A DNA stretch of 64,000 nucleotides from a virus (IMGVR_UViG_3300021400_005610); one strand, 5' to 3'; positions 5,407 to 64,000 are shown, numbered from the stretch's first letter. Program-made: numbers and translations. Notes: a model not told the origin generated them from the letters alone.

Positions 5407-5441
5407 GATCGGGCTTGCATATATTTGCAGGCCCGATTTTA
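5407..5441 (+). terminator. rho-independent terminator
   Basis: cgggcttgca...tgcaggcccg hairpin followed by a T-run. Confidence 0.55.
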
Positions 5442-5974: not shown

Positions 5975-5985
5975 GGTAGATAATT

Positions 5986-6582: not shown

Positions 6583-6611
6583 TTTTATTTTGTGATGTTT
6601 GAGAAAATCGC

Positions 6612-6640
6612 TTGAAAAATGCGATGATTTGCTGTAAAAT
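6612..6640 (+). promoter_or_regulatory. sigma70-like promoter (TTGAAA-17-TAAAAT)
   Basis: Hexamers with a 17 bp spacer upstream of the topoisomerase gene. Confidence 0.5.
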
Positions 6641-6704
6641 GATAACAGCGCATATTTTGTGATTTATGTCGATTTGAAAGTGAATATTGAAAGGAGCTTT
6701 GGTT

Positions 6705-33341: not shown

Positions 33342-35144
33342 ATGATTTTTGATAGAAAATTTCCGCGTGATGCTGATGATAAGCCGTTATATCCGTTTCT
33401 GGAAACCTATACGTCGCCTGTAAAACGGGCTGAGAGAGAGATTGTTGGACGTGAAGTAGAGAAAGCAAGAGTTATGGCTGCTATGCAGCGTCCTGAATTG
33501 TGTAACGTTATTCTCTTGGCTGAAGCTGGTTCTGGTAAAACGGCATTGGTACAAGGTATTATGTTAGATGATCCTGACAGGTATTATCTGGAAGTAGACT
33601 TGTCCCATATGATTGCCGATTTGCGTGATAAGAACCAAATGGCTGATAAGTTGAAAAATCTTTTTGATGAAACTCAGCGATACTGTAAGCAAGAGTCTTG
33701 CCAAGTAGTTCTGTTTATAGATGAGTTTCATCAGGTTGTAGAACTTTCTCCTGCAGCCGTTGAAGCACTGAAGCCTTTGTTGGCTGATTCAGGTACACGT
33801 GGTATTCGTGTTATTGCCGCCACGACGTTCGTAGAGTTCCGTAAATGGATTTCACCTAACCAGCCGTTGGTTGAACGTTTGCAGCGTATCAATTTGGAAC
33901 CACCGTCAAAGAAGATGGTTGTAGCCATCTTAAGGGGTATGGCGAGACGCTATGGTGTTGAGCAACAATTCTATAATGATATGCTCTTTGAAGATATATT
34001 CGATTTAACAAACCGATATATTCCTGCTAACGCACAGCCTCGTAAGTCCATTCTTGTGTTGGATGCTATGGTTGGTTGGTACAGGTACAGCAGACGTAGG
34101 CTTGATAGGAAACTGTTAGCTGATGTTATTTACGAATCTGAGGGCGTTAATATCGCATTCCGTGTGGATGCAACAAGGATTAAGCAAGAACTGGATGCGC
34201 ATGTGTATGCACAGGAACTTGCATCAACTATTATTCAAGATCGTTTGCAGATTTGTGTTGCGGACTTGAATGATAAGAGTAAGCCAATGAGTTCGTTCCT
34301 GTTTACAGGATCTACTGGTGTCGGTAAAACTGAAATGACGAAACAGTTGGCTCAGATCTTATTTAATGATAGTCGTAGATTGATTCGTTTCGATATGACG
34401 GAATATGCTAATGAGAGTTCGCTTGATTTGTTCCGTCATGAGCTTACGAACCGTGTTTGGGAGCGTCCTTACAGTATTATTCTGTTGGACGAGGTTGAAA
34501 AAGCTTGTGCTCCTGTTACACGTATTCTTTTGCAGGTATTGGATGATGGTCGTTTGACTGACGAAAATAACCGTGAGGTGCCATTTGTCAACTCATATAT
34601 TGTTATGACCACGAACGCAGGTAATGAGGTTTATAAGGACATTGCACAATACGCGGCATCTGATACAGGTTCGGGTGAGAACCTGAAGAAATATGAGAAG
34701 TTAATTCGTAATTCAATCAGTCAGACAACGGGTGACAATAGGTTCCCGCCTGAATTGTTAGGACGTATAGACTGTATCGTTCCGTTCCAGCCGTTGTCAG
34801 AAAATACACAGAAACTGATTGTTAAGAATAAGTTGACCAAGCTGAGAGACCAGGTTAAAGAGAAGCATGGTATCGAGCTGAAGATTAAGGAACGTATTGT
34901 AGACTATATTGTCAAAGACAATTTGGATACAGAATCTGACGCTGGTGGTGCTCGTGCTGTTATTTCCAAACTGGAATCTGAAGTGGTTACAGCGGTCGCA
35001 CAGGCGATTAACACTTATCCAGATGTACAGGCATTACTGATTGATTACGAAGGTACGCCTGCTTATCAGAACAAGCATCAGCTTGAGTCATCTGCACGTA
35101 TTGTGGTGACACCTGTTACAGTTAATTCTGCGGCACGCAGATAA
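33342..35144 (+). CDS. ClpA/ClpB-like AAA+ ATPase with two NBDs but lacking N-terminal and middle domains
   Basis: NBD1 Walker A LLAEAGSGKTAL and Walker B LFIDEFHQV. NBD2 Walker A FLFTGSTGVGKTEMTKQLAQ and Walker B ILLDEVEKA. It is only 600 aa. Confidence 0.7.
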   Translation: MIFDRKFPRDADDKPLYPFLETYTSPVKRAEREIVGREVEKARVMAAMQRPELCNVILLAEAGSGKTALVQGIMLDDPDRYYLEVDLSHMIADLRDKNQMADKLKNLFDETQRYCKQESCQVVLFIDEFHQVVELSPAAVEALKPLLADSGTRGIRVIAATTFVEFRKWISPNQPLVERLQRINLEPPSKKMVVAILRGMARRYGVEQQFYNDMLFEDIFDLTNRYIPANAQPRKSILVLDAMVGWYRYSRRRLDRKLLADVIYESEGVNIAFRVDATRIKQELDAHVYAQELASTIIQDRLQICVADLNDKSKPMSSFLFTGSTGVGKTEMTKQLAQILFNDSRRLIRFDMTEYANESSLDLFRHELTNRVWERPYSIILLDEVEKACAPVTRILLQVLDDGRLTDENNREVPFVNSYIVMTTNAGNEVYKDIAQYAASDTGSGENLKKYEKLIRNSISQTTGDNRFPPELLGRIDCIVPFQPLSENTQKLIVKNKLTKLRDQVKEKHGIELKIKERIVDYIVKDNLDTESDAGGARAVISKLESEVVTAVAQAINTYPDVQALLIDYEGTPAYQNKHQLESSARIVVTPVTVNSAARR

Positions 35145-37442: not shown

Positions 37443-37581
37443 TCTAAGTTGAATAGTTTGACACAATTGTTGAAAGTACGGAATTGTTGAGAGTACGGCG
37501 ACGGTGATCATAAATTGATGGTTGCCGCCGCCGTTTCTAATATGCTTTGTATTATTTTATGGGAAGGAGGCGCTGACAAAT

Positions 37582-40500
37582 ATGCCAAAGTCTACGTCGA
37601 ATTGGGACCGACTGCGTGGTAGGAATGTTCAAGACACGATGCAATTTCGTGACGTATATGAAGATCAGCAGCTTGAGCGTACCAGGATAGGCGAGAAGCA
37701 AACAATGACATCGCGTAATATTTTGAATGCGGTGTTGACTGTGGTTGTGTTCTTTGTGTCATATTATATGATTGGTATTGTAAAGGCCATATCGTCATAT
37801 CTGTATGGCTACGATCAGCAGTCACACTCGTTCGCATATTATGTCGGTCATTTCTCGTTCACTCGTGTATTAATCTGTTTGATTATTTCAGCAGTGTTTT
37901 ATGGCGTCATGTATTTGGTGCTGAAGCATAATTTGGATGTTCAGAACGGTACGTTAGATACATCTGATATTAACCAGTATCAGAACGACCAACATATTGC
38001 ATTGCCTGAAGAAATTCAGAGAAAATTCGACTGGTTCCCTGATGTCGGTGCTACATCTGATGTGCAATTTTCTTCTATGATTTCGCATTGTGCTTTAAGT
38101 AATAAAGGGTTGAATGAAGTTGAGGTTGCTCGTCGTGTTCCACAGGATATTAAAGATGATGATGGTGATGTAGTCTTATATAAAGGTGAGATTCTTCGTG
38201 ATGAAGATGATAATATCTTGTATGAGACGAAACCGATGATTGATATTGATTTCATGAATGCGTTGTATGACGCTTCAGGCTTGCCGAATGTCAAGGGTTT
38301 GCGTAAGTTCTATAACGCAACGATGATTCCTTATAATCCTGATAATAAAGACCGTGATAAGCTGAAAGGTTATGACACGGTCGCAGATTTGATTAACGGT
38401 GACTGGCAATTACCTGCTTACGAGCCGCAGAGACCAGGCGGAGCGTATCTGGTTGATACGGCACCTGTCAACACGATGGTGTTGGCTATTACTCGTGCTG
38501 GTAAAGGTCAGACGGTTATCGAGCCTACGCTCGATATGTGGACGAGAGAACGTAGACCAAATAATATGGTCATTAACGATCCTAAGGGTGAGTTGTTGGT
38601 TAAGTTCTATGTGCGTTCCACGGTGCGTGGTTTCCAAGTTGTTCAGTTCAACTTGATTAACGCTATGAAGACGGATATTTATAATCCGCTCGGTTTGGCT
38701 GCTGAGGCGGCTCGTGAAGGTGACTTTACGAAAGCTGCACTGTATGTTGAAAATATTGCGGACGTTTTCTTCCCTGTTGATGGCGGTGATGACCCTGTGT
38801 GGCCGAACGCTGCTAATAACGCATTTAAGCGTGCTGCATATGGTCTTATTGACTATTATCTGGAAGAAGAGAAAGAACTTCGTAGTTTCGCTGAAAAGAC
38901 CCGTATGGATGAGAAGGTTTTGGAAACAAAACTGGATGCTATGTGGGGCAAAGTCACACTGTATAATACCTATCAGTTATTCGTACAGTTGACATCCAGA
39001 AAGCTTAAGAACCCTGCTGTTGAGTTTACAAAAGACGCAAAGGCAGGTAAGTTCGACTCTATGTCGGATGAAGAATATCAGGACAAACTGGCAGAAGTAG
39101 AAGCCAAGTCGAAGTTGTGGGAAGATAAGCCAGAGGCTGACTTGTTGACGTTGTATTTTAATGCAACGGATACGCTTCCTACGAACTCAATGAGACGACT
39201 TGTTAGTAACGCTAACAATGCGTTGCGTTCAATGGCTGGTGCTGAAAAGATGTTGGCATCCGTTTACGGTATTGCTATTACGGCTATGTCGTTCTTTACA
39301 GACCCGACGATTTCAACACTTACTTCTGGTACTCCTTCGCAGAATGCTGACCTTCCAGGTTTGTCGTTCCCAAGAACATTTGGTATTCGATTCCATTCTG
39401 ATTTCTTGGCTAAGTACCATTTGATTGGTATGCAGGCACAGTGGATGTCTTATCATGATAAGGACTTCACACAAGAAATGGGTAAAGATTTCTACCACGA
39501 GGATACGATTTCTCGTGAAGGTTGGGCGAAATATTATTTCAAGGGCAAATATCCGAAGGATATTGCTTATGTGAGATTGCAGATTGTCAATCCACAGACG
39601 GGTATGTTAATTCGCTCCTTCTATTTCCAGTTCAAGAAGTCGTATCAGACTTCTTTGGATGCGAGATATTATATAACGGATCCTATTCTTGGCGATAAGA
39701 TCGTAAAGAATGGTGTTTTGGTTGAGCTGCGTCAGTTCAAAACGAAAGATGGTAAGATTGTCTATCGTAAAGCAAAGACTCAGTTCAAGCAAATGAAGAT
39801 TCCTGATGTTTTGACCAGTAAGCGTTTAGAGTCTGTAAATACAGTGGCAATTATCAGAACGCAAGTGCGTTACAGTGAGAAGCCAAAGATGGTGTTCCTC
39901 GTTACGCCTCCGCATTTGATGAAATACGCCAAATTGATTCTTATTTTGGTCAAACAGTTGGTTGACTTGAATTTTGATAAGTCATACATGACAAAGTCGA
40001 ATCAGAAACCTTTGTATAAGACACGATTCATGCTTGATGAGTTGGGTAACTTACAGTCTGAAGGACATGGTATCTCTGGTTTTGCTACGATGCTTTCCAT
40101 CGGACTTGGTCAGGAACAGCAGTTTACTTTGATTCTGCAGACGTTGCAGCAGTTAAGAGACGTTTACGGTGATTCTGTTGATAAGATTGTTCAAGGTAAT
40201 ACCTCGAACATCGTGTTCCTTAAGTCTACCGATGACTCGATGCTTGATACATTGCAGAAGATGTCTGGTACGACACATAGGACGTTCAAAGATAGTAAGA
40301 CAATTACGGTCGATAAAGAGCGTCTGTTTATGCAGAACGATCCGAAGCAGACTGTAACTATGACGACGAAGGAAGTTCCTGTTATTTCTTACAACGATAT
40401 GGCGTTTATTTCGGAACGTAACTCTATCGTGTTCCGTGCTGGCGATAGTCCTGTTTGGAACCGTAATGAAATGATTCTTCCGATGTCTTGGCGTCTGTTT

Positions 40501-41313
40501 AGTAATACGATTGTTCATGCTGGTCATGACTATTCGTTGCAGACGATTCCTACGTTGTCTTCCGCTTTGGACTTTGACGTTCGTAAGAATCAGCCTGATT
40601 TTATGAAGATGTTGAATAAGCGTATCGAACAGTCTACGATGTCTGAACCTGCTAAGATTGCGTATCAGCAAGCTTATGGTTATTCTGATTATGAGATTGA
40701 ACAGCTTGACCCAGATAACTATGCAGATGAGATTATGACGATTATCAATAATTATCTGCGTAAGAGGGAAGAAGCTACGAATGAGCAGGACGAGAATGAG
40801 TTCGAGATGGATTTTTCTGATGATTGGATGGGCGACGTTGAGGAGAACACGGAGCAGTTACAGGCTAATGCCGAGGCTGCTGCACAACAGTCCAATAAGG
40901 ATCAGAAGCGTTATGCTGGCAATATGCTGTCTCGTGAAGACCTCGTATCTTCAACGTCTGGTGTTAACCACTCGTTAGATAAGGATATTATCGAGAGTTA
41001 TCTTGAAGTGAAGCGTTATATGTGGAACGATACTACGAAGTTCGTTAATATGCATGGCGATTTGTATGGCTTGAATAGCGAACCGTATATCATTCGTTCG
41101 TCTACATCTGAAGATTTGGCTGAATTGCAGAAAGCCGCTGAGGATAAGGATTCTAAGGTTTATTCCGAGGGTAAGATTAACGAGAAAGATTTGAATTCTC
41201 TTGGTTCTTACGAGGTAACAGATGCGTTCTATCGTTTCTTGGTGTCGCTTGACCGTTGGGATTTTGCACAGGGTCGTTTTGATACAGAAATGGCGCGTCG
41301 TATGAATGCTTAA
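37582..41313 (+). CDS. type IV coupling protein (TraG/VirD4 family)
   Basis: Two N-terminal TM helices. Walker A AITRAGKGQT matches the T4CP APTRSGKG type, and Walker B is FMLDELGNL. GGAAGGAGG RBS precedes ATG 37582. Confidence 0.8.
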   Translation: MPKSTSNWDRLRGRNVQDTMQFRDVYEDQQLERTRIGEKQTMTSRNILNAVLTVVVFFVSYYMIGIVKAISSYLYGYDQQSHSFAYYVGHFSFTRVLICLIISAVFYGVMYLVLKHNLDVQNGTLDTSDINQYQNDQHIALPEEIQRKFDWFPDVGATSDVQFSSMISHCALSNKGLNEVEVARRVPQDIKDDDGDVVLYKGEILRDEDDNILYETKPMIDIDFMNALYDASGLPNVKGLRKFYNATMIPYNPDNKDRDKLKGYDTVADLINGDWQLPAYEPQRPGGAYLVDTAPVNTMVLAITRAGKGQTVIEPTLDMWTRERRPNNMVINDPKGELLVKFYVRSTVRGFQVVQFNLINAMKTDIYNPLGLAAEAAREGDFTKAALYVENIADVFFPVDGGDDPVWPNAANNAFKRAAYGLIDYYLEEEKELRSFAEKTRMDEKVLETKLDAMWGKVTLYNTYQLFVQLTSRKLKNPAVEFTKDAKAGKFDSMSDEEYQDKLAEVEAKSKLWEDKPEADLLTLYFNATDTLPTNSMRRLVSNANNALRSMAGAEKMLASVYGIAITAMSFFTDPTISTLTSGTPSQNADLPGLSFPRTFGIRFHSDFLAKYHLIGMQAQWMSYHDKDFTQEMGKDFYHEDTISREGWAKYYFKGKYPKDIAYVRLQIVNPQTGMLIRSFYFQFKKSYQTSLDARYYITDPILGDKIVKNGVLVELRQFKTKDGKIVYRKAKTQFKQMKIPDVLTSKRLESVNTVAIIRTQVRYSEKPKMVFLVTPPHLMKYAKLILILVKQLVDLNFDKSYMTKSNQKPLYKTRFMLDELGNLQSEGHGISGFATMLSIGLGQEQQFTLILQTLQQLRDVYGDSVDKIVQGNTSNIVFLKSTDDSMLDTLQKMSGTTHRTFKDSKTITVDKERLFMQNDPKQTVTMTTKEVPVISYNDMAFISERNSIVFRAGDSPVWNRNEMILPMSWRLFSNTIVHAGHDYSLQTIPTLSSALDFDVRKNQPDFMKMLNKRIEQSTMSEPAKIAYQQAYGYSDYEIEQLDPDNYADEIMTIINNYLRKREEATNEQDENEFEMDFSDDWMGDVEENTEQLQANAEAAAQQSNKDQKRYAGNMLSREDLVSSTSGVNHSLDKDIIESYLEVKRYMWNDTTKFVNMHGDLYGLNSEPYIIRSSTSEDLAELQKAAEDKDSKVYSEGKINEKDLNSLGSYEVTDAFYRFLVSLDRWDFAQGRFDTEMARRMNA

Positions 41314-45538: not shown

Positions 45539-45630
45539 GGGTTGGTGTGGCGAATTGGTGAAGCCAGCGGACTGTAAATCCGTCACCCACAGGGTAAACA
45601 TTGGAGGTCCGAGTCCTCCCCAGCCCACCA
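45539..45630 (+). tRNA. tRNA-Tyr (GTA) second copy, type II
   Basis: Acceptor gggttgg/ccagccc, anticodon loop ctGTAaa, long variable arm with a ccc-aca-ggg hairpin, T-arm ggagg-tccgagt-cctcc, CCA. Confidence 0.7.
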
Positions 45631-53059: not shown

Positions 53060-53110
53060 ATTTGTAGCTTAAATGGGCTTTAGTTCGCATTTAGGAAAGG
53101 ATTGAATGGA

Positions 53111-55672
53111 ATGTCGGAACACATTGAAGGAATTATTACTCGTTTAGTAAAAGGTACTCCGAAAGCAAACCGTTGGTTTGCAGGTAGTGTTCGTTTATCC
53201 GATGGAAGTTACGTTCGTGTTGCTGGTACAGCTAACGTGCGTGTAAATATAGGAATGACCATTGAGTTTAATGGTGATTTGGTTAGCACCAATTATGGTG
53301 ATCAGTATGAGCCTGTTTCAGGTGAATTGATTCGTCGTCGTTTAGTGACGAAATTTGAAATAATTTCGTTTTTGACGAGTCCTGTTTTTCCTGGTATTGG
53401 TGAGAAATCAGCAAAGCTGATTTATGAGAAATATAAAGACCAAACGATGCCTATGCTGGAACAGCATATGGATCAAGTTATTGCAGATTGTAAGCTGAAT
53501 AAGTCTCAAGCTGCTGGTTTGGTCAAAGGTATTTCTTCTACTTCTGGTTTGGCAAAGCTGAAGTATACATTTCCGCATATGAAGCAGTATCTTTTGGATA
53601 GAATTTTAGATACTGTCGATGTACGTCATTTGGATGATGTTGTCGATAGGATTTGTAGAAATCCATATACTGCGTTATATGGTGATACTGGTTTCAATGT
53701 GTCATTGTATGATACAGATGAGATTGCCCTTTTGGATGTTGGTTTTGATGAATATGCGAAAGAACGTATTGATTTGGTGGTGTATGCTGCTTTGTCAGAA
53801 TTTATGGGTGACAAGAACGCTACTTACGTGAAGATTGATTATGATCATAATTTTGCGGAATATACTTGGTTTTTTAACAAGTATGTTCGTGCGGTTAGAC
53901 TTTTCAAGCCGTTGCCGATATATTGGGATGGCATGTTGTTTGATGCCAACTGTTTAGCTATGAAGTTTCAACAGTATTGGGATGATATTCATAGTTTTTC
54001 GTCCTGTGTTTGTTCGGATAGACGAATCAACCCTGATGGAACAGGGGAGTTTGATTTGTATCAGAAGAAAATTTATTTGGCAGAAAAGTCTTTAGTGGAA
54101 CAAATCAATCGTTCTTACAATGATACGATGAATACGGCTTATATGAAGAGAACGGTTAAGTTCGTTCAATGGTATAAGGCGATGAAAGCGGAAGGTGTTT
54201 ACACAAACACGAATCCTGATCAAGATCAAGTTGCTGCTGTAAGGCAAGTATTTGGTTCTTGTATGTCATTTTTGTCAGGCGGACCTGGTCGTGGTAAGAC
54301 CGCAACCATTGGTTTTTTGATTAATGCGTGGAAACAGTCTGTTGGTAATCATATTCTGTTGCTTGCACCTACAGGTAAGGCTGTGAATAAGGTGAAGGAT
54401 GCAACGAAGTACGTGAATGCTGAGACCATTCGTCGTTTCATTTTAATCAATAAATTGAAACGTACTAAAGATTCAGATTATATCTTGGATATGTATGGCG
54501 ATAAGATGCCTATTGGTCTGAATACATTAGTTGTTATTGATGAAACGTCCATGTTGGACTTTGTGGAAGCAAGCGATCTGTTGTCTGTTATTGACGGTTG
54601 TACGATTGTGTTTTCTGGTGATAAGGATCAGTTATCTCCGATTAGTCCTGGTTCATTTCTTTCGGAAATGTTGGATAGTCATAAGATTAATCTGTCTCTT
54701 TTGACACATAACTATCGTACTGATGTCCCTGAGTTGGGCGAGAATGCAGATAAGATATTAGCTGGTTGTAAGGTTACGGATTTGACTTTGACAGATAATT
54801 TTAGTATTATTCCATCAAAGGAACGTGCGGATGATGGCGGTTTGTCGCCAGCTGAAAAGTACATTCTGAATGAATATGCTGATCGCATGGCAGAAGGTGC
54901 TGATTTTTCGGACATTCTTGTTGTTGCGCCATTTACGAATAGTAAGTATGGTTTGTCAGCAGGCCATTTGAATTATGTCTTACAGGCAAGATTTAATCCA
55001 CAAGATGATAAGGCGTATTATAAGTATGGCCAGGATGATTACGGACGGTATATCGATAAGAGAGGTAAGGAATGCCCTGTCTTAGATAAGTCTGGTAATC
55101 GTGTGCGTCTTGGTGATCGTGTTATTAACAATCGTAATAACATGGATGCGTCTTGGCATAGTTTTAAGAATGATAATGTTGGTTACGAATCGTCTTTGGA
55201 CGATCCAATAGATAGTGCGATTAACACGGGTGTGTTTAATGGCGATATGGGTACCATCGAGCGTTATTACGAAGCAACGGATTCTGATGGTCCGAGGATT
55301 TTGGTCTGTTTGGATCAGCTTTCTCCGTATGGAAAGCGTCGTTATGTGTGGGTTGATTGCGAGTCTGATTTTCATGGTGTATGGCATTTAGCCGATTGGA
55401 CTTTAGGTTATGCACTTAGCGTACACAAAGCACAGGGTAGTGAGGCTCGCCATGTAATTGTGGCTTTATCTGAAGAAGGTTATAAAGCCGTCAGTTGGCG
55501 TGTTATGAATGGTTCAGCTCCATTCTTGACGAGAAACATGTTGTATACAGCTGTGACTCGTGCAAAAGAATCAGTACGGATTATCGGTAGTTTAGTTGCG
55601 TTGCAAGCTTGTTTAGATATGCCGTATTACTACTGTAATGTTCGTTTGGCTGAGGCGTTAGATAAAGCATAA
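53111..55672 (+). CDS. RecD2-like superfamily-1 DNA helicase
   Basis: Walker A SGGPGRGKTATIG and Walker B VVIDETSMLD. The C-terminal VHKAQGSEARHVIV is a RecD/TraA-like motif. The N-terminal ~300 aa extension includes an HhH-like segment. Confidence 0.85.
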   Translation: MSEHIEGIITRLVKGTPKANRWFAGSVRLSDGSYVRVAGTANVRVNIGMTIEFNGDLVSTNYGDQYEPVSGELIRRRLVTKFEIISFLTSPVFPGIGEKSAKLIYEKYKDQTMPMLEQHMDQVIADCKLNKSQAAGLVKGISSTSGLAKLKYTFPHMKQYLLDRILDTVDVRHLDDVVDRICRNPYTALYGDTGFNVSLYDTDEIALLDVGFDEYAKERIDLVVYAALSEFMGDKNATYVKIDYDHNFAEYTWFFNKYVRAVRLFKPLPIYWDGMLFDANCLAMKFQQYWDDIHSFSSCVCSDRRINPDGTGEFDLYQKKIYLAEKSLVEQINRSYNDTMNTAYMKRTVKFVQWYKAMKAEGVYTNTNPDQDQVAAVRQVFGSCMSFLSGGPGRGKTATIGFLINAWKQSVGNHILLLAPTGKAVNKVKDATKYVNAETIRRFILINKLKRTKDSDYILDMYGDKMPIGLNTLVVIDETSMLDFVEASDLLSVIDGCTIVFSGDKDQLSPISPGSFLSEMLDSHKINLSLLTHNYRTDVPELGENADKILAGCKVTDLTLTDNFSIIPSKERADDGGLSPAEKYILNEYADRMAEGADFSDILVVAPFTNSKYGLSAGHLNYVLQARFNPQDDKAYYKYGQDDYGRYIDKRGKECPVLDKSGNRVRLGDRVINNRNNMDASWHSFKNDNVGYESSLDDPIDSAINTGVFNGDMGTIERYYEATDSDGPRILVCLDQLSPYGKRRYVWVDCESDFHGVWHLADWTLGYALSVHKAQGSEARHVIVALSEEGYKAVSWRVMNGSAPFLTRNMLYTAVTRAKESVRIIGSLVALQACLDMPYYYCNVRLAEALDKA

Positions 55673-55692: not shown

Positions 55693-57075
55693 ATGGCTGA
55701 TGTTTTTATAAGAGATGATAATTCGCTTGATGATTCTCAAGCGTATTACAAAGTAAAGATTAAGAAAGCATGGTTTCGTGGTCGAGACGTTTTTACGGAA
55801 CGACTGCATTACTATGAAAAGCAGTTGATTCGCAATCCTGTTGTGTATATTCCGCTGAATGCAGGAAATATGATTTATACCATGATGCACCGTCTTGAGA
55901 CGGGTGTTGAATGGGAAAAGCAGGCGGCTCTTATGGCATCGTATAGAAATCTGGTGTATCGTTTGTCGTACACACAGGTTTCTTGGCATAAGGATGATGC
56001 TCAATTTATTGTTTTTGAGGGTCAGAAGTCTGACGTTATGTGGTCTATGGCTTTCATCACGCAGGTCTTCTTTGAAGATCCTATGCTGTGTATGACGATT
56101 CCATCTCGTCCAGACGAACCTGTGATTGCGTTTGCAATTCAGAATGGTGAGTATGTTGGTAAGAACGCTGTGATTTCACAGAAGACAAATGCTCTTCCAG
56201 ACATTTGGTCTACAGAAGCGGCGGGTGTTGTTACTGATGATATGCAGTATGATCCGACACATGAACCACAAGGTGGCGAAGTATTTGCTATTCCTGATGG
56301 TCGTATTGCTCAGTATATTCGTATGGATGAACGGTTCTATCATGCGAATCGTACAGGTCCAAAGACCGATGCTATTACACGGCATAACATTTCTGCGAGT
56401 CTTATTAAAGACTTTGAAGACCTTATTTATTCGCAGACAAAGACTGCGTTTGATGTCTATCAGTTGCGTTATGTAGCGTTCATGAATAAGGTACATGATT
56501 TGGAAAACAAGCTTGGCGGTTTGGAAATTACATGTTATGATGTGCTGCCTATCGCTGAGAGAGGTTTGCCACTTGCGTCTATTGATACGATTTCCCGTAC
56601 CAATTCTTTGGATTGTAACTCTTTGAAATACATTTTGGATTCTATTCAACGAGATGGTGTGGAGGAGTCTGAGCGAAAGATGATTGCGAAGAATGCGGCT
56701 CGATCTGTGTCGATGCGTCAGAAAGGATACGAAGATGAATATCGTATGTATTTAGCGACAGGTACGCCTGAGAATCTGGCTGCTGAAATGTATAAACGTA
56801 TGATTTCTGAATTGTATAATGATTTCGCTCGTTTGGATGCTATTAGAGCATTTGGTTTCTCTCCAAATATTTATCGTGATTTGTGTAATGTGCCTGCATC
56901 AGGTGGTCCTGTTATGACAGACTGGGAGCGTCAGCGTATTCGTCTGTTTGGCAAAGGTTATTTGGACTTTTTGAATTATCAGATTAAGATGAGTCAAAAT
57001 AAGGCAAAAGGTCGTGTTTGGGTAGAAGCAAAGCGTCTTTTAGATGCCCGATTTATGAGGGCTGTTCGAAAATAG
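55693..57075 (+). CDS. hypothetical protein co-transcribed with helicase
   Basis: 460 aa. Starts 21 nt after the helicase stop with a GGAGG RBS. No recognisable motifs. Confidence 0.5.
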   Translation: MADVFIRDDNSLDDSQAYYKVKIKKAWFRGRDVFTERLHYYEKQLIRNPVVYIPLNAGNMIYTMMHRLETGVEWEKQAALMASYRNLVYRLSYTQVSWHKDDAQFIVFEGQKSDVMWSMAFITQVFFEDPMLCMTIPSRPDEPVIAFAIQNGEYVGKNAVISQKTNALPDIWSTEAAGVVTDDMQYDPTHEPQGGEVFAIPDGRIAQYIRMDERFYHANRTGPKTDAITRHNISASLIKDFEDLIYSQTKTAFDVYQLRYVAFMNKVHDLENKLGGLEITCYDVLPIAERGLPLASIDTISRTNSLDCNSLKYILDSIQRDGVEESERKMIAKNAARSVSMRQKGYEDEYRMYLATGTPENLAAEMYKRMISELYNDFARLDAIRAFGFSPNIYRDLCNVPASGGPVMTDWERQRIRLFGKGYLDFLNYQIKMSQNKAKGRVWVEAKRLLDARFMRAVRK

Positions 57076-57175
57076 TTTGACTATTTAAGAAAAAGCGGTT
57101 GATATATGAATAAAATCGTGTTATACTTTCCTGTGAAAATGTTGGTTTTGACAACAAGAAGGGAGTTGAATCACG

Positions 57176-57367
57176 ATGGGCATTGGACATAAACTTTTGC
57201 TTGTTACTTGTGGTGTCGGATTAGGATTCGGCCTTGCAAAATTACTTGATAATGTGTGTGTCATCAAAATTGAAGATGATGACAAAGAAGTTCCTGATGA
57301 GGAACTGGAAGATGAAGATGATTCTATCTTTGAAAACGAAGAGGGAAAAACGACTGCGGAAGCGTAA
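57176..57367 (+). CDS. small membrane/acidic-tail peptide
   Basis: 63 aa with an AAGGGAG RBS. One hydrophobic helix is followed by a poly-acidic tail. Confidence 0.45.
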   Translation: MGIGHKLLLVTCGVGLGFGLAKLLDNVCVIKIEDDDKEVPDEELEDEDDSIFENEEGKTTAEA

Positions 57368-57477
57368 ACGCTCCGTGTCTGGTTGGCGAATGTCAGAGGG
57401 GGCAGCGGGTTACGTATCACTGCCCCTCTCTTTATCGCAAAAAAAAAAATACGCAGTAGTTGGAAAGGATGTTAGAC

Positions 57478-60051
57478 ATGCCAAAGAAAGATCATAAGGT
57501 ATCGTCCAATGGACAACAGGGTGGTAAATCATCTTCGGTTCGTATTAAGAGCTGGGATGATTGGTTTAATCTTTGTGGCACGTTAATTGCTGATTTACAA
57601 GCGTATGAAAAGTTAATGCAAGAGTATTATTTTGATACTCAGTATCAGAATGATAGTGACTCACAACATGCTGCGCAGTTAGCTTATCAATCAAAGCATA
57701 ATAAACGATTCTTTGAGTCGGATAGGCAGATTCCGAAATGGATGCAGACAAAAGCTTTGACGAGCGGTGCGGTTGGTGTAGTTGTTGGTCTTGTTGTTGC
57801 AGCTTTTCTTAGTATTATAGCTGGTATGAAAGCAACTGGTGGTATAGCTTTCACTGGTTTCGGTTGGCGTGCTATTGTATTTGGACTGATTTTTGGTGGC
57901 TTGTTCGGTTATCTGCCGATTTTCTTACATAAGAACAAGTTACGGAAGATTTTCTCACAGATGCGGGTTATCGAAGATCGTATCTCAGATAAGATTACGT
58001 ATATTCCGCCGAAATATAGAAATAGTCAATCTGTCAATACCTTTTACGATTTGTATTGTAGTTATGGTATTGTGACGTTCAATCAGGCAATTGAAGCTTG
58101 TGATGATTATCTGACGAGCAACAATTTGGTTGGTGCATATATGGCGGAATTATTTGATTTGCCTTATATGAACGGTTTATCTGCAGATGAACGTAATGGT
58201 TTTGATAAAGATGAGGCTCTGAAAGATCCGAATCTTCCTGATGATATTGCAAGCAAAACCTTTACTGGTGTTGAGAATGCAGACGAACAGTTGGATGCAT
58301 TGATTGGTCTTTCCAATGTGAAAGAACAGATTCGTCAGATGAAGAACCGTATGAATTTTTATGGTTCAAAAGGAACTGCAGATAGTATTTCAGGAAATCA
58401 TATGGTCTTCCTTGGCCCTCCAGGTACAGGTAAAACGACAGTTGCTCGTATCATCACACGTATTCTTTATGACTTTGGTTATATCAAAGAGAATAAATGC
58501 GTCGAGATTGACGGTGGATATTTGAAGTCTCCGTATTCTGGTCAGACAACAGAACGTGCAAATGCGATTATTAAATACGCATTGGGTGGTGTTTTGTTGA
58601 TTGATGAAGCTTATATTTTGACTGAGGATAAGAATGGTTCTCAGGGTGCCGAGGCTGTTGGTGTTCTGTTGAAAGCAATGGAAGATCATAAGAATGACTT
58701 CGTTTGTATTCTTGCTGGTTATGAGGACAATATGAATAGAATGTTGGCTTCAAACGAAGGTTTCCAGTCTCGTATTAAATATAAGATTTATTTTGAGAAT
58801 TTCACTGTTGATGAAATGGGTGAGATTTTCCGTCAGCTTATGAAGAAGGGAAGTTCCCATAGGTATAAGATTGAGAAAGAAGCATTTGAGACGTTGAAAC
58901 AGCATTTTGCTCGTGAGCGTCGTATTGCTGGTTTCGGTAATGCTCGTGTTGTTCGTACTGCGTGGGATTCCATCTTGGATGTTCATGCTGATCGTTATAT
59001 GCGGAAGGAAGTAGACGAAGAGCACAAGTTTGTTATTACGAAGGAAGATATTGAGCAATATACAGAGGTTCGTCGTAAACAGATGGTGGAAGACGGACGT
59101 AACTTTATTGCAAGTCGTAATCTTGATTCGACGGTTATTTCTCTGACTGAGTTAAAGCAGAAGACAAAGCCTGGTTCAGAGGATCCTGATAAGGACCTTG
59201 CTGCCTTGACAGGTTTGAATGTGGTTAAGGATGAGATCAAGCGTATGAAGGCGCAGTTTGCTTTCTATGATGGTAATCTTGAAAACAATGGTTACCACAT
59301 GGTATTCCTTGGTCCTCCTGGAACGGGTAAGACGACTGTTGCTGGTATCATGACTGGTTATCTGTATCAGATGGGCTTGATTCAGGAGAACAGTTATGTT
59401 GATATCAACGGTGATTTCTTGAGAGGTATGTATCTTGGACATACTGGTAAGCGTACAGAAGCTGTTGTTCAGTATGCACAAGGAATGGTTTTGTTTGTTG
59501 ATGAAGCATATTTGCTGACGTCATCTGGCGGTCAGTCTGACTCGTTTGGTCAGGAAGCTGTTGGTGTATTGATTGATGCGATGGAGAAGTATCGTCATAA
59601 TTTTGTGGTTATTTTTGCGGGTTATGAAAAGGAAATGTCTAATTTCTTAGATATGAACTCAGGTCTTCGTAGCCGTATCAATCTGGAATTCCATTTTGAA
59701 TCTTATACACCACATGAACTTGCTGGCATGTTTAGGAATGTTGCTAAGAATGAAGGATTTACGGTTGCTAAGGATGTTTGGGTTCCGATGCAACGCTACT
59801 TTAAGGATAAAGTGGCTGATCCGAAGTTTGGTAATGGTCGTTTCGTTCGTCAGTTCTTTGAGTCAATGAAGAAGCAGCATATTTTGAATTTTGCTGATGG
59901 CATGTATAGTGCCGATGAAAAGTATGTGTTTACATTAGACGATTTGAAGTCTGTTATCGATGCTGATACGGCTTTGACGGAACCAACGCCATATAATGAA
60001 TCTGCAAATGGTTCAGCATATGGTGGGGAAGAGGGTAACGATATTGTATGA
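57478..60051 (+). CDS. membrane-anchored tandem AAA+ ATPase (two SpoVK/CbbX-like modules)
   Basis: Two hydrophobic helices around aa 95-160. Module 1 has Walker A MVFLGPPGTGKTTVARI and Walker B LLIDEAY. Module 2 has MVFLGPPGTGKTTVAGI and LFVDEAY. GGAAAGGA RBS precedes ATG 57478 (the track starts at in-frame TTG 57460). Confidence 0.8.
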   Translation: MPKKDHKVSSNGQQGGKSSSVRIKSWDDWFNLCGTLIADLQAYEKLMQEYYFDTQYQNDSDSQHAAQLAYQSKHNKRFFESDRQIPKWMQTKALTSGAVGVVVGLVVAAFLSIIAGMKATGGIAFTGFGWRAIVFGLIFGGLFGYLPIFLHKNKLRKIFSQMRVIEDRISDKITYIPPKYRNSQSVNTFYDLYCSYGIVTFNQAIEACDDYLTSNNLVGAYMAELFDLPYMNGLSADERNGFDKDEALKDPNLPDDIASKTFTGVENADEQLDALIGLSNVKEQIRQMKNRMNFYGSKGTADSISGNHMVFLGPPGTGKTTVARIITRILYDFGYIKENKCVEIDGGYLKSPYSGQTTERANAIIKYALGGVLLIDEAYILTEDKNGSQGAEAVGVLLKAMEDHKNDFVCILAGYEDNMNRMLASNEGFQSRIKYKIYFENFTVDEMGEIFRQLMKKGSSHRYKIEKEAFETLKQHFARERRIAGFGNARVVRTAWDSILDVHADRYMRKEVDEEHKFVITKEDIEQYTEVRRKQMVEDGRNFIASRNLDSTVISLTELKQKTKPGSEDPDKDLAALTGLNVVKDEIKRMKAQFAFYDGNLENNGYHMVFLGPPGTGKTTVAGIMTGYLYQMGLIQENSYVDINGDFLRGMYLGHTGKRTEAVVQYAQGMVLFVDEAYLLTSSGGQSDSFGQEAVGVLIDAMEKYRHNFVVIFAGYEKEMSNFLDMNSGLRSRINLEFHFESYTPHELAGMFRNVAKNEGFTVAKDVWVPMQRYFKDKVADPKFGNGRFVRQFFESMKKQHILNFADGMYSADEKYVFTLDDLKSVIDADTALTEPTPYNESANGSAYGGEEGNDIV

Positions 60052-60530
60052 CATCGACATTAGAGTTCCAAACGGTTGCTAAACAGTGGTTATATAATGA
60101 GAAGATTGAGCAGATGCGAGATCTGGAGCATCATAGAGGAACTACTATTTATGATCATGTGTGTCATGTAGCTCAAAAGAGTTATAATTTTGCTAAGCGC
60201 TGTCCGTTCCATGTGGATACGGACAGTGTCTTAACAATCGCATTCTTGCATGATTATTTTCTGTATGATAGGAAGGTTCCGCATAGCAGGTTGTATCATA
60301 GTTATCGACATCCTGTGATTGCTGCAGAAAATGCATTGCGTGATTTTAATATAGGGAAAAAAGAATATCTTGGTATTCTTACACATATGTGGCCTCAGGT
60401 GCCTTGGTTGTTTCCACGAAGTAGGGAGGCTTGGATTGTTTGCTTTGCCGACAAAGTGTGTGCGATTCAAGAATATGCAAGACGTGATTGTGCACGGAAT
60501 CGTAAAGTCCAGAAAAAACCTCATAAATGA
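60048..60530 (+). CDS. HD-domain phosphohydrolase
   Basis: H..H (HRGTTIYDHVCHV) and the HD motif (AFLHDY). The start ATG overlaps the AAA+ stop (ATGA), implying translational coupling. Confidence 0.7.
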   Translation: MTSTLEFQTVAKQWLYNEKIEQMRDLEHHRGTTIYDHVCHVAQKSYNFAKRCPFHVDTDSVLTIAFLHDYFLYDRKVPHSRLYHSYRHPVIAAENALRDFNIGKKEYLGILTHMWPQVPWLFPRSREAWIVCFADKVCAIQEYARRDCARNRKVQKKPHK

Positions 60531-60634
60531 GGTGAAAATACTGGACTTTATTTTAATTATCTGATATAATGTATATGAACCTATGATGAAATATTCTTGT
60601 GAAAACAAGTTTTGTGTTAGAGGAGTTTTGAAAT

Positions 60635-63064
60635 ATGGCCGTTGATTTAAAAAGTGTTGATAGCAAGAGCAGGTATATGCTTAAAAGAGATATGTCTCTT
60701 TTAAAGAAGGTAAATGATTTATCTGATTCGATTAGCAGTATGACCGATGACGGTTTGCGTGAATTGGCAAGAGATTTGCGTAAGCGTTCACTTCGTTGTA
60801 AATCTTTGGATGAATTGTTACCTGAAGCGTTTGCGTTGGTGCGTGAAGCGTCTCTGCGTACAACAGGTTTGTATCCTTATGATGTTCAGATTCTTGGTGG
60901 AATTGAACTCTATCGAGGACGTATTGCTGAGATGAAAACAGGTGAAGGTAAAACTCTCGTTGCTGCTATGCCGTCATTTTTAATGGCTTTGTCGGGAAAA
61001 GGCGTACATGTGGTTACGGTCAATGATTATTTGGCAAAGCGTGATGCTGCAGACATTGGACGAATTCATACGTTCCTTGGATTGAGTGTTGGTTGTGTAA
61101 CAAACGATACTAATCCGACTGACCGTAAGAAAGCATATCAGTGCGATATCACGTATGTGACAAACACAGAACTTGGGTTTGATTATTTGCGTGATAATAT
61201 GGTTGTAAAGCCTGAGCGTAGAGTTCAGAGAGGTTTGCATTATTGTATCATTGATGAGGTCGATTCAATTTTGATTGATGAGGCTCGTACACCTTTGATT
61301 ATTTCTGGAGCACAGACGAAAGAAATGAATATCTATCAGCATTGTGATATGATTGCTAGTATGCTGGTGAAGGGCAAGAAAAGTCCTGAAGTTTCAAAGG
61401 TTGATATGATTTCTGGTGTTCGTGAACAAGAAGAAGGCGATTATATCGTCGATGAGAAGGAACATACGGTTCATTTGACAGATGCAGGTGTTGCAAAAGT
61501 CGAAAAAATGCTTGGTATTTCAAATTATTCTTCTGATCGATATGGTGACGTGAGACACCATTTACAGATGGCTTTGCAAGCACATGGTTTGATGCATCGA
61601 GATAAAGATTATATCGTGCGTGATGGCGAGGTTGTTATTGTTGATGAATTCACAGGTCGTGTGATGCCTGGTCGTGTTTTTTCTGATGGTTTACATCAGG
61701 CGATTGAGGCCAAGGAGCACGTAGAGGTTCATCCAGAGACGAACACTTTGGCGACAATCACGTATCAGAATTTCTTTAATAAATATGCCATTAAGTGTGG
61801 AATGACGGGTACGGCGAAGACATCTGCTGAAGAATTTAAGACCATTTATGGCTTGGTCGTTTGTGTTGTGCCGACAAATGTTCCTGTTCGGCGTGTTGAC
61901 GAAGGCGATGTTGTTTTTTTAACACGAGAGGCGAAGCGTAAAGCCGTAGTTAATGAGATTTTAGATGCGTATAAGAGACGACAGCCTGTTTTGGTTGGTA
62001 CTACTACCATTAAGGAATCAGAGATTTTATCAGAACATTTGAAGGCGTTTAATATTCCGCATAATGTTTTAAATGCAAAATATCATAAGCAAGAAGCTGA
62101 GATTATTTCTCATGCTGGTGAGGCTGGTCGTATTACGATTGCTACGAATATGGCTGGTCGAGGAACGGATATTAAGTTGACAGACGAGGCAAAAGAAGCT
62201 GGTGGTCTTTATGTGATTGGTACGGAACGTCATGAGGCTCGTCGTATCGACAATCAGCTGAGGGGTCGTTCTGGTAGGCAGGGGGATCCTGGTAAGTCTA
62301 AGTTCTTTTTGTCTTTAGATGATGATGTAATGAGACTGTTTGGCTCATCTAAGATTTTGGATATGCTGAAGTCGATGGGTCTTGATGAATGGGCACCAAT
62401 TGAACATAAATCAATCACAGGACTTGTTGATAAGGCACAGAAGAAGATTGAAGGTGTTAACTTCGGTATTCGTAAGTCTCTGTTAGATTTTGATGAGGTT
62501 AACAATGAGCAGCGTGAGTTGATTTATGCTCAGAGGAATGCCATCATGAATGGTGGCGATCCATCAAAAGCTATTACCGATATGATGATTGCCGTTGCTT
62601 GTGCAAAAGGTAAGAAGTATTTCGTGAAGAATTCGCCGAAAGAGTGGGATCTTTATCATTTCGGTAAGGATTGGAGCGATGTATTCCCGAAGCAACCTGT
62701 GATTGGAAAGAACAGAGCGAAGATGTTTGACAATTTGGAAGCATCTGTTTATACGCAGTATCAAGAACATTTTGCGGAGTTCGGTACGACAGAGCAGGGT
62801 CGAGAGTCTTTGAGATATGTACTGTTGAAGTGCATTGATCGAAATTGGATCAAACATTTGAATACATTGGAACATTTGAAACAAGCTGTAAATTTTGTTG
62901 GCTATGGTCAGAAAAATCCTGTGACGGTATATCGTGACAAATCGTATGATGCGTTTGAAGATATGCTCAAGACGATTCAGTATGAAACGGCTAAGTTCTG
63001 GTTTGTTATCAGACCGATGGCTGTTGAAGTTGTTTCGGCTGAGGGAAGTTCACCAAAATCATAA
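60635..63064 (+). CDS. secA2: SecA-family translocase ATPase, short form lacking C-terminal Zn-finger tail (SecA2-like)
   Basis: The N-terminus matches SecA DEAD motor motifs (KTGEGKTLVA, TVNDYLAKRDA, DEVDSILIDEARTPLIISG). It is 809 aa and ends without the Cys-rich CTD, like accessory SecA2. AGGAG RBS. Confidence 0.8.
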   Translation: MAVDLKSVDSKSRYMLKRDMSLLKKVNDLSDSISSMTDDGLRELARDLRKRSLRCKSLDELLPEAFALVREASLRTTGLYPYDVQILGGIELYRGRIAEMKTGEGKTLVAAMPSFLMALSGKGVHVVTVNDYLAKRDAADIGRIHTFLGLSVGCVTNDTNPTDRKKAYQCDITYVTNTELGFDYLRDNMVVKPERRVQRGLHYCIIDEVDSILIDEARTPLIISGAQTKEMNIYQHCDMIASMLVKGKKSPEVSKVDMISGVREQEEGDYIVDEKEHTVHLTDAGVAKVEKMLGISNYSSDRYGDVRHHLQMALQAHGLMHRDKDYIVRDGEVVIVDEFTGRVMPGRVFSDGLHQAIEAKEHVEVHPETNTLATITYQNFFNKYAIKCGMTGTAKTSAEEFKTIYGLVVCVVPTNVPVRRVDEGDVVFLTREAKRKAVVNEILDAYKRRQPVLVGTTTIKESEILSEHLKAFNIPHNVLNAKYHKQEAEIISHAGEAGRITIATNMAGRGTDIKLTDEAKEAGGLYVIGTERHEARRIDNQLRGRSGRQGDPGKSKFFLSLDDDVMRLFGSSKILDMLKSMGLDEWAPIEHKSITGLVDKAQKKIEGVNFGIRKSLLDFDEVNNEQRELIYAQRNAIMNGGDPSKAITDMMIAVACAKGKKYFVKNSPKEWDLYHFGKDWSDVFPKQPVIGKNRAKMFDNLEASVYTQYQEHFAEFGTTEQGRESLRYVLLKCIDRNWIKHLNTLEHLKQAVNFVGYGQKNPVTVYRDKSYDAFEDMLKTIQYETAKFWFVIRPMAVEVVSAEGSSPKS

Positions 63065-63234: not shown

Positions 63235-64000
63235 ATGAAGAGGATGAGAACAAAATGGATGGCTATGTCATCCGTCTTTTTGGTGTTGTCGTTGTTGTTA
63301 GTAACTGTTCTCCCCGCATCAATAGCTGGTGCCGAAGAATCGGCGTCTGGAAATATTGCGGAGGCTATTGCGGATCCAGATACATCCGACATGTATGTGG
63401 ATTATTTTGATGATATTGATGTCTCTCCAAGGTTTTGGAGTGACAAGAGTGTTACGGCTAATGAAGATGGCAGTATGTCGGTTGTCTATTCATTAATGGT
63501 CCGTAACAGCGTAACTGAAGACGAGACAATGTTGTCTGTCTTAAACCAAGAATCTGATGTTGAAATCAAGGATGTTATTGGGAAAGGTTTTGAACTTGGT
63601 TCCGATATTGTGATTCGCAATGAGGACGGTGTATTTACTGCACAGAAAGACGAGTTCAATGTGACGTCGGAGATGAGCGGCGACAGCGAGGCGGTGCCTT
63701 CTGTATCGTATGATTATGATACGAAAGAAATAGTCGTAAATATGCGTGCTGCATCAATAGGAAATATTGATAATGGTTCATGTACGACGATTGCATTTTC
63801 ACTTGTTCCGAATCCTGAGGAGTTTGAGAGTGGTACACTTGAGTATTATGCTGATGGTAATTCTGTTGTAACTGGACTGTTGTCAGACGGTGTTGTGTTA
63901 GAACCTGAGACTCTTGAGAAATCGGAAGATGTGACTGGTCTTACATCTTTGTATAAGACGAGAGAAGTCTTTGATGGTTATGTTGTAGATACAATCTACA
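63235..64000 (+). CDS. secreted protein with N-terminal signal peptide (3' partial, runs off window)
   Basis: GGAAGGAG RBS. Signal peptide MKRMRTKWMAMSSVFLVLSLLLVTVLPASIAGA. The frame is open to the window end. Confidence 0.65.
   Translation, partial: MKRMRTKWMAMSSVFLVLSLLLVTVLPASIAGAEESASGNIAEAIADPDTSDMYVDYFDDIDVSPRFWSDKSVTANEDGSMSVVYSLMVRNSVTEDETMLSVLNQESDVEIKDVIGKGFELGSDIVIRNEDGVFTAQKDEFNVTSEMSGDSEAVPSVSYDYDTKEIVVNMRAASIGNIDNGSCTTIAFSLVPNPEEFESGTLEYYADGNSVVTGLLSDGVVLEPETLEKSEDVTGLTSLYKTREVFDGYVVDTIY

Follow-up and report, generated by a model that had tools for sequence, protein, structure and literature searches.

The stretch analyzed here, referred to as the window, comprises 64,000 nucleotides of the viral sequence IMGVR_UViG_3300021400_005610. 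Its region 57176-60530 had been described in an initial annotation, made from the sequence alone, as encoding a membrane-anchored tandem AAA+ ATPase of the SpoVK/CbbX type translationally coupled to an HD hydrolase, a pair proposed to form a small module related to secretion or defence. The present analysis places the ATPase in a known AAA+ clade, within which its architecture is new, and on giant elements whose lineage is apparently undescribed; the HD gene is identified as an exchangeable neighbor. The + strand of the region carries four genes, which encode a protein of 63 residues (p63), the long ATPase, an HD protein of 160 residues and a SecA of 809 residues.

Architecture of the tandem ATPase

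The features of the region are as follows.

57099..57127, + strand: sigma-70-like promoter ahead of the p63 gene (TTGATA, 17 nucleotides, TATACT, TG extension; 10 of 12 consensus matches)
57176..57367, + strand: p63, a single-pass membrane protein with an acidic tail, according to sequence and hydropathy
57395..57429, + strand: G+C-rich hairpin in the gap between the p63 and ATPase genes, with CTTTAT and 11 consecutive A downstream
57478..60051, + strand: tandem AAA+ ATPase of 857 residues, ATG start (the longest open reading frame begins at TTG 57460)
57478..57753, + strand: ATPase residues 1-92, N-terminal cytoplasmic helical segment with a WDDWF..CG..YE motif
57754..57927, + strand: ATPase transmembrane hairpin (first helix 93-117, short variable loop, second helix 130-150)
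57928..58260, + strand: ATPase juxtamembrane stalk and PPxYRNS domain (motif at residues 176-183), then an acidic linker modelled at low confidence
58261..59112, + strand: ATPase AAA+ module 1 with its AAA_lid_6 lid, residues ~262-545
59113..59997, + strand: ATPase AAA+ module 2 with its AAA_lid_6 lid, residues ~546-840
60048..60530, + strand: HD-fold gene, 160 residues, overlapping the ATPase stop as ATGA
60542..60570, + strand: promoter-like site ahead of SecA (TGGACT, 17 nucleotides, TATAAT, TG), a consensus match only
60635..63064, + strand: SecA paralogue, 809 residues, with all four SecA Pfam domains

The ATG at 57478 is the likely start of the ATPase, since it is preceded at a distance of 8 nucleotides by a ribosome-binding site (GGAAAGGA) and since the database protein P0001 (857 residues, 99% identical) begins at the corresponding ATG. 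An exact look-up of the 863-residue version starting at the TTG gave no match, as the database copy starts at the ATG; all ATPase residue numbers count from ATG 57478. The hairpin upstream of the gene may act as a weak terminator or attenuator, and the fold of the whole intergenic stretch was not significant (z = -1.6). All promoter calls are consensus matches, and such sites are no more frequent than in shuffled sequence.

Two complete AAA+ modules behind a double transmembrane segment, as initially annotated, were recovered by motif, Pfam, hydropathy and AlphaFold2 analysis. Both modules carry a GPPGTGKTTVA Walker A motif (residues 313-323 and 612-622) and a DEAY Walker B motif (376-379 and 675-678). 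Pfam assigns AAA (PF00004, 113.7 bits) and AAA_lid_6 (PF17866, 72.7 bits) to two stretches each, so that each AAA domain is followed by the four-helix lid of the SpoVK-EccA clade, and modules 1 and 2 share 40.5% identity (E = 4e-66). The best NCBIfam matches were SpoVK (TIGR02881, 358.2 bits; cut-off 422.95), EccA (TIGR03922, 340.1; 466.65) and CbbX (TIGR02880, 326.7; 459.25), all of them under the respective equivalog cut-off. Among solved structures, CbbX (3syk, E = 1e-38 with module 1) and EccA1 (E = 2e-36) were matched best, end-to-end over AAA domain and lid.

Three features have been used to distinguish the clade from FtsH: a sensor-1 region with the GY signature, an Asn located four positions ahead of the first Arg finger, and the retention of the sensor-2 Arg (PMC11513918). 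Conservation of the corresponding positions was counted across 121 family sequences. The GY signature occurs as AGYE at 413-416 and 714-717, with Y415 present in 121/121 and Y716 in 115/121 sequences; the Asn is found at N426 (120/121) and N727 (119/121), but only in module 2 is it followed four residues later by the Arg-finger residue (R or K in 93/121), module 1 having A, S, N, Q or E there; and the sensor-2 Arg is retained within GNAR (R490, 121/121) and GNGR (R788, 117/121). In module 1, little or no variation was seen at K319 (Walker A) and D376/E377 (Walker B), and GY415, N426 and R432 are conserved. In module 2, K618 occurs in 120/121 sequences, D675/E676 in at least 118/121, the pore-loop Y652 in 119/121, R or K at position 731 in 93/121 and R733 in 115/121. 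The pore-loop Tyr is conserved in both modules, and degenerate Walker motifs are confined to a few divergent sequences, e.g., P0120 and P0112. Clade membership, as first proposed, is thus borne out by Pfam, NCBIfam, structure matches and motifs: judged by its sequence, the ATPase is a member of the SpoVK/CbbX/EccA clade and not an orthologue of SpoVK, EccA or CbbX.

The N-terminal region differs from anything described for the clade. Hydropathy analysis revealed two hydrophobic segments (residues 93-117 and 130-150), and a structure prediction of this region, which had been suggested as a check (AlphaFold2, residues 1-262), returned a helical membrane module at a predicted local distance difference test score (pLDDT) of 83, with long helices at 87-118 and 125-173. 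Two further helices, 26-55 and 60-71, were modelled at pLDDT >90, and W26, W29, F30 and E44 are invariant or nearly so. As judged from the agreement between hydropathy and this confident model, the ATPase is membrane-anchored. Since Lys and Arg residues flank both cytoplasmic ends, and since the ATPase domains need ATP and must face the cytoplasm, the N- and C-termini would both be located inside.

A profile of the N-terminal module was compared with 1.84 billion representative proteins and matched 43 proteins at E <= 1e-10, all of them full-length ATPases (745-1200 residues) or their fragments. Weaker matches were stand-alone membrane proteins of ~225-340 residues, some with an N-terminal zinc ribbon, which share the juxtamembrane motif [YF]VPPxYRxS...EA...D.Y with the ATPase. 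One of these proteins is encoded directly downstream of the ATPase of locus L180 and another in a bacterial-looking context; for a third, P0264, the contig is just 1.5 kb long and the context uninformative. The novelty is therefore one of architecture, namely the fusion of a previously undescribed membrane module (WDDWF, two transmembrane helices, PPxYRNS) to tandem CbbX-like modules. Literature searches for a membrane-anchored tandem CbbX/EccA-like ATPase yielded no description.

The family comprises >120 full-length homologue clusters at 90% identity, which are 40-99% identical and occur on metagenomic contigs of up to 364 kb. Family-profile scans of GTDB genomes and JGI metagenomes returned, among the matches listed, mostly distant tandem CbbX-like ATPases that are 24-45% identical over the AAA part only; the sole clear family members among them were L092 and L093. 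Similarly, the closest matches in GTDB representative genomes (among those listed) and PLSDB plasmids cover only the AAA part at ~31-43% identity, and no full-length relative was found in PLSDB plasmids by tblastn. Three homologues (P0094, P0100 and P0102) reach ~1200 residues and contain Hom_end/LAGLIDADG families (PF05204, PF14528), and these insertions are probably inteins in the ATPase gene. In L092, a 260-kb contig, the ATPase gene at 5705-8289 is broken into three open reading frames (84, 320 and 398 residues), reflecting either a pseudogene or indel errors of the assembly.

The HD gene and the slot downstream of the ATPase

The HD gene starts with an ATG at 60048 that overlaps the TGA of the ATPase gene (60049-60051), so that the ATGA overlap was found at 60048-60051 as initially reported. 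It had been considered that this reading frame might be a mis-called continuation of another frame. This was ruled out: the HD gene is a real, separate gene, since it is kept as an open reading frame of its own in L007, L008 and L173, and since stand-alone homologues of 146-164 residues also occur in bacteria outside these elements. Pfam HD (PF01966) matches the window protein at 17.3 bits, below the gathering cut-off of 22, and a precomputed PF01966 match is present in 5 of 13 database homologues. The protein has an HD fold. Across 14 sequences, no variation occurs at its metal ligands H37, H68-D69 and D135 or at H84, H88 and H113, and the family has motifs of its own, FLHDYFLYD and THMWP. 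Based on the invariant H..HD..D ligands and the fold, the protein is probably an active metal-dependent phosphohydrolase. Among small stand-alone HD phosphohydrolases (PDB 2pq7, YqeK 8wmy, the PgpH HD domain 4s1b, YedJ 3gw7), identity to the HD protein does not exceed 24%, and no characterized subfamily stands out.

The nearest relatives outside the element (40% identity; homologue P0131) are found in chromosome-like loci, one in a genome assembly and others on metagenome contigs, among housekeeping-type neighbors (ATP synthase, LDH, amylase). In L176-L178 (7072-8480), the related HD gene overlaps by 4 nucleotides the stop of a gene for a PF06541 (CmpB-type) membrane protein; the HD family is thus located downstream of a membrane-protein gene in both settings seen.

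The downstream context of the ATPase gene was readable for eleven independent lineages, which are given below with the identity of their ATPase to that of the window.

Window and L007 (99%): HD
L008/9 (70%): HD
L173-175 (69%): HD
L172 (67%): DAGK_cat (lipid-kinase domain) gene
L001/2 (62%): SecA directly
L180/1 (60%): stand-alone paralogue of the N-terminal module, then DUF3592 and Cas3/5/8c/7
L092 (55%): unknown gene of 200 residues
L005/6 (53%): bPH_1
L010/11 (52%): unknown gene of 94 residues, then DUF2130
L003/4 (40%): HU
L093 (35%): SprT-like gene

The HD gene hence adjoins the ATPase gene in 3/11 lineages, all within the clade of 69-99% identity, while eight other states of the slot were observed. 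In L180 (10001-17245), the ATPase gene is followed by a 278-residue copy of its own N-terminal module, DUF3592 and a type I-C CRISPR-Cas system (Cas3, Cas5d, Csd1, Cas7). An HD-family profile matched 9 of the 178 loci examined, comprising six close-clade ATPase loci and the three chromosome-like loci fetched via P0131; within the same 178 loci, those of distant tandem CbbX-like ATPases gave no match. ATGA overlaps also occur at two other gene junctions in the window.

The pairing had been considered unusual and possibly uncharacterized. It indeed does not correspond to a known annotated system: in PADLOC-DB 2.0, the ATPase obtained only partial matches to generic AAA proteins (IetA at 47 bits, mad8, TRIP13), none of them specific, and the HD protein, p63 and the 460-residue protein encoded further upstream (p460, see below) were without match. 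A defence role for the pair was rejected on the PADLOC result, as it found no support there, and the distribution among lineages does not uphold the pair as a functional module. The results rather indicate that the HD gene is an exchangeable accessory in a hypervariable cargo slot between ATPase and SecA, and not a dedicated partner of the ATPase. The AAA+/HD pair should therefore not enter catalogues as a new defence or secretion module.

Neighboring genes and the element

Further genes adjoin the locus on both sides.

53102..55672, + strand: RecD2-like helicase of superfamily 1B (Pfam AAA_30, AAA_19, UvrD_C_2, SH3_13)
55693..57075, + strand: p460, a 460-residue protein of unknown function without family match, which travels with RecD2 and the ATPase
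63235-63999, + strand: start of a large Cna_B/SHIRT-type surface adhesin gene, directly after SecA and running off the end of the window (978 residues in L007)

RecD2 is the first gene of a conserved syntenic block upstream of the ATPase and was found there in L001/2, L005, L007, L008, L010/11 and L092 (by tblastn) and in L172, L173 and L180 (from gene tables); the order RecD2-p460-ATPase is maintained in relatives whose ATPase is as little as 52% identical. Searches of Pfam, PHROG, NCBIfam, PADLOC and PDB gave no match for p460. Its 77 listed homologues are mostly 445-500 residues long, lack a Pfam domain, are always encoded just after RecD2 and are in some cases located on the same giant contigs as the ATPase, so that p460 represents an element-specific family without known relatives. 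The transmembrane peptide with an acidic tail noted ahead of the pair was likewise found: p63 consists of one hydrophobic helix and a tail of 39 residues with 18 Asp/Glu and 3 Lys/Arg, and its gene is served by a separate promoter-like site and ribosome-binding site. In 6/11 lineages (window/L007, L008, L172, L173, L010/11, L092), the gene directly upstream of the ATPase encodes a small protein of this build, an N-terminal transmembrane helix followed by an acidic tail; these proteins share only 14-28% identity among lineages, while position and build are conserved. The steadiest local partners of the ATPase are thus the RecD2-p460 pair and the small acidic-tailed single-pass protein. In L005 and L180, a gene for an M50/PDZ site-2 protease lies directly upstream of the ATPase gene.

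The remainder of the window provides information on the type of element. All sizeable genes are located on the + strand, and the GC skew is uniformly positive at ~+0.25 (0.17-0.32 in every 2-kb block, 1-64000), a pattern that looks like one replichore of a large replicon. The G+C content is ~41%. The other genes of note are the following.

8-1033: actin-like (ALP/ParM-type) partition protein
2045-2827: ParA ATPase
3683-5389: D5/DUF5906 primase-helicase
6687-8960: Toprim topoisomerase
1136-1909: MscS channel
31449-32558: Band_7/flotillin protein
33342-35144: ClpB-like two-module ATPase
29311-31410, + strand: MobL-family relaxase (182 bits)
37522-41313, + strand: open reading frame of 1263 residues, the middle of which (38545-40170) shares 64-84% identity with VirD4/T4SS-DNA_transf-like proteins from related loci

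The partition and replication genes at 8-8960 constitute a plasmid-style maintenance and replication block, and the relaxase and the VirD4-like region represent conjugation-type genes on a giant tRNA-bearing element. Between 43007 and 51195, 36 tRNA genes are arrayed, all on the + strand and with small open reading frames between them. ARAGORN and Rfam agree on all of them, including a tRNA-Tyr copy at 45539-45630 (92 nucleotides) that reaches just 29.3 bits in Rfam, and the Rfam scan of the window detected tRNAs only. A protein with a Phage_lysozyme2 domain is also encoded. Two very large, ATGA-coupled open reading frames (879 and 1515 residues) at 12425-19608 showed only a weak collagen-repeat match; this is the most G+C-rich part of the window (0.46-0.53 vs ~0.41 elsewhere).

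The relatives are gut or faecal metagenome contigs of up to 364 kb, among them ERZ913631 scaffold_3 (364 kb) and ERZ27273350 contig_3402 (360 kb). They add genes for sortase, Cna_B adhesins and, in one case, type I-C CRISPR-Cas, as well as PspA and M50/PDZ site-2 protease (L003 17726-20556, L005 8606-9940). Together with the MscS channel, the Band_7/flotillin protein and the ClpB-like ATPase of the window, the latter two give the element lineage a set of genes for membrane upkeep and proteostasis. In scans of viral contigs, single proteins matched nothing, and a profile scan found two IMG/VR contigs (133 and 165 kb). A PHROG scan of 20 large open reading frames of the window revealed no capsid, portal, terminase or tail-sheath family, and megablast of 52-64 kb against 50,697 phage records gave no DNA match. 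Taken together, the element is best described as a giant conjugative-plasmid-like extrachromosomal element of a Gram-positive (Bacillota) gut host, with a phage-plasmid kept as an alternative. The ATPase marks a lineage of such elements, equipped with a SecA of their own, an array of 36 tRNA genes and genes for membrane stress, that is apparently undescribed in the literature searched; searches for giant gut elements with SecA yielded no description.

Proposed function and comparison with known systems

We consider it fairly probable that the ATPase is a backbone gene of this giant conjugative-plasmid-like gut element and acts as a membrane-tethered remodeller, while the HD gene occupies a cargo slot. 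The characterized members of the clade each have a defined client, which is RuBisCO for CbbX, MurG for SpoVK and type VII secretion substrates for EccA (PMC11513918), and the clade is emerging as a group of narrow-specificity chaperones, each activating one client at one cellular site. By analogy, the ATPase is probably a membrane-tethered protein remodeller of narrow specificity. The two-helix hairpin would hold the protein in the membrane with both ends in the cytoplasm, placing the two AAA+ modules at the inner face. On the model of CbbX, SpoVK and EccA, the protein most probably assembles into a hexamer, here a double ring. Powered by ATP, it would thread or remodel a limited range of client proteins close to the membrane, and the N-terminal module would determine which client is selected or where the protein acts. 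The acidic-tailed small protein is one candidate client; others are substrates or components of the element's SecA pathway and the machinery for conjugation or partition. As exchangeable cargo co-transcribed with the ATPase, the HD enzyme would probably work independently.

Several points weigh against this proposal. The mechanism rests on analogy with three characterized relatives. The first Arg-finger position of module 1 (residue 430) is never Arg and is occupied by A, S, N, Q or E in every one of the 121 sequences. The tight junction between ATPase and HD genes is kept in all three HD-bearing lineages, as a 4-nucleotide overlap in the window, a 1-nucleotide overlap in L008 and an overlap in L173, and a functional link specific to this clade is conceivable. 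With regard to the element, its type was deduced from the 64 kb of the window and ~10 kb of flank read per relative, and the two relatives from the profile scan are listed in IMG/VR. Finally, since gene order is broadly collinear among the elements, the conserved proximity of RecD2, p460 and SecA says little about a common function.

Among the alternatives, the one that we rate highest, though still as unlikely, is a dedicated chaperone or unfoldase for the SecA pathway of the element. Such an ATPase would handle surface proteins (Cna_B/SHIRT adhesins, the collagen-like giant protein, sortase substrates) in the manner of EccA or SecA2 accessory factors. The initial annotation had pointed to a SecA2-like gene following the pair. 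A SecA gene does follow, but it does not score as a SecA2: the protein passes the NCBIfam SecA models (PRK12904, 1005.5 vs 814; TIGR00963, 954.3 vs 800) and falls below all SecA2 cut-offs (TIGR04397, TIGR03714, NF012136, TIGR04221), and no signal of Asp or SecY2 accessory genes was obtained. It also lacks a Cys-rich C-terminal tail and matches phrog_32805 at E = 1e-240. A Cys-rich zinc-binding tail is typical of housekeeping SecA. SecA is adjacent to the ATPase or one gene away in the 62-99% clade (window, L001/2, L007, L008, L172, L173), the ATPase is tethered at the membrane where SecA works, a Cna_B adhesin gene lies right after SecA and a sortase gene is present in L008, and the clade includes the secretion-serving EccA among its narrow-specificity chaperones. 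A link to secretion via the adjacent SecA is possible. However, in L005 a distance of 9.5 kb separates SecA from the ATPase, and in L003/4, L010/11, L092 and L180 no SecA occurs within 5-10 kb downstream. In the window it follows the HD gene after a gap of 104 nucleotides with a promoter-like site of its own, and the collinearity of the elements gives the adjacency little weight.

A broader and more speculative scenario, to which we attach rather little credence, combines several of these components. The acidic-tailed small protein and the hairpin-anchored tandem ATPase with its PPxYRxS module might together form a new machine for extraction or assembly of membrane proteins, an FtsH-like motor without protease that in some lineages is paired with an M50 protease gene. 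Giant elements with their own SecA, flotillin, PspA, MscS and ClpB would bring it along to build or maintain an envelope apparatus in the host, and accessory enzymes for this membrane site would come from the slot (HD, lipid kinase, others).

Two other explanations appear to be distinctly improbable. According to the first, ATPase and HD protein form a true two-gene unit in a sub-clade, in which a nucleotide or second-messenger signal made or removed by the HD enzyme gates the ATPase, or which serves anti-phage or anti-plasmid defence. The conserved junction in three lineages with 52-95% HD identity and the intact catalytic residues would fit this view, and the CRISPR-Cas genes in the L180 slot demonstrate that the position can host defence cargo. 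On the other hand, eight of the 11 lineages lack the HD gene and carry unrelated genes in the slot, PADLOC gave nothing for HD and only generic AAA matches of at most 47 bits for the ATPase, a related HD gene resides in a chromosome-like context beside a different membrane protein, and the HD family does not occur beside any more distant tandem CbbX-like ATPase among the 178 loci. According to the second, the ATPase cooperates with RecD2 and p460 to process DNA at the membrane, e.g., by tethering or remodelling a replication, partition or conjugative-transfer complex. RecD2-p460-ATPase is the most conserved synteny observed, the p460 family shares giant contigs with the ATPase, and a relaxase and a VirD4-like coupling protein are encoded in the window. 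However, the 40% clade (L003/4) has neither RecD2 nor p460 directly upstream, RecD2 being located 9.5 kb downstream; in L005 and L180, variable genes spanning up to ~6 kb lie between p460 and the ATPase; the ATPase has no detected DNA-binding domain; and DNA machinery is not a known target of any member of the SpoVK/CbbX/EccA clade (PMC11513918). Least probable is a jumbo phage in which the ATPase would help to take over the host or to assemble virions or a compartment at the membrane: the two IMG/VR contigs, matches to phrog_4339 (E = 7e-50) and, for SecA, to phrog_32805, the tRNA array, the D5-type primase, the Phage_lysozyme2 domain and the inteins of some homologues would suit a large phage, but the missing virion families among the 20 open reading frames scanned and the missing DNA similarity to phage records speak against it, and relaxase, VirD4-like protein, ParA and actin-like partition protein point to a plasmid lifestyle.

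With the membrane-tethered remodeller on a plasmid-like element as the preferred reading, both element and ATPase can be compared with known systems. The element resembles the Inocles, giant circular extrachromosomal elements of ~350 kb from oral Streptococcus with 24-32% G+C (PMC12340149), in being giant and plasmid-like, in belonging to Gram-positive commensals, in being known from metagenomics only, and in its tRNA genes, RecD-like helicases, sortase and replichore-like GC skew. The two were compared by description, and they differ in habitat, oral versus gut or faecal. Identity with Inocles was set aside because of the G+C content (24-32% vs 41% here).

The ATPase shares with CbbX, the activase of red-type RuBisCO (PDB 3syk, 3zuh), the pore-loop Tyr context GxYxGxT, the GY signature, SN.GF.SR and the GNAR sensor-2. 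CbbX, however, is soluble, has a single module and ~300 residues and acts on RuBisCO, whereas the ATPase has two modules behind a membrane anchor, and no RuBisCO gene was seen in the window open reading frames scanned or in the flanks. SpoVK, the top NCBIfam match, belongs to the same clade and has the same phylum-level host range. This AAA+ protein of Bacillus sporulation promotes, at a defined site, the activity of MurG, an envelope enzyme associated with the membrane (PMC11513918). It is soluble and sporulation-specific, with one AAA module and a short beta-rich N-domain, in contrast to the two modules and the helical membrane region of the ATPase. The initially proposed resemblance to EccA, the chaperone-like ATPase of type VII secretion (PDB 9lur), holds at the level of clade homology of the AAA domain, and the role of EccA is secretion-linked. 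It does not extend further, as the ATPase stays below the EccA cut-off, and EccA is a soluble actinobacterial protein with a TPR/beta-helix N-domain and a single AAA module. The N-terminal 262 residues of the ATPase gave no TPR match and were modelled as a helical membrane module, and no EccC/EssC, WXG100 or other type VII family was found in the Pfam results for the window open reading frames scanned, a part of the total, or in the gene tables of the flanks.

A parallel in membrane arrangement is offered by FtsH, whose AAA domains form the sister group of the SpoVK-EccA clade (PMC11513918). In both proteins, a two-helix anchor with N- and C-terminus inside, as predicted for the ATPase, precedes a classical-clade AAA domain at the inner membrane face. 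FtsH has an M41 protease domain, one AAA module and a periplasmic domain, whereas the ATPase has no peptidase Pfam match, two modules and a short external loop, and it keeps the sensor-2 Arg that is usually absent in FtsH. The theme of the SpoVK/CbbX/EccA clade would be extended to the membrane by a tethered member with a double ring and a new N-terminal module.

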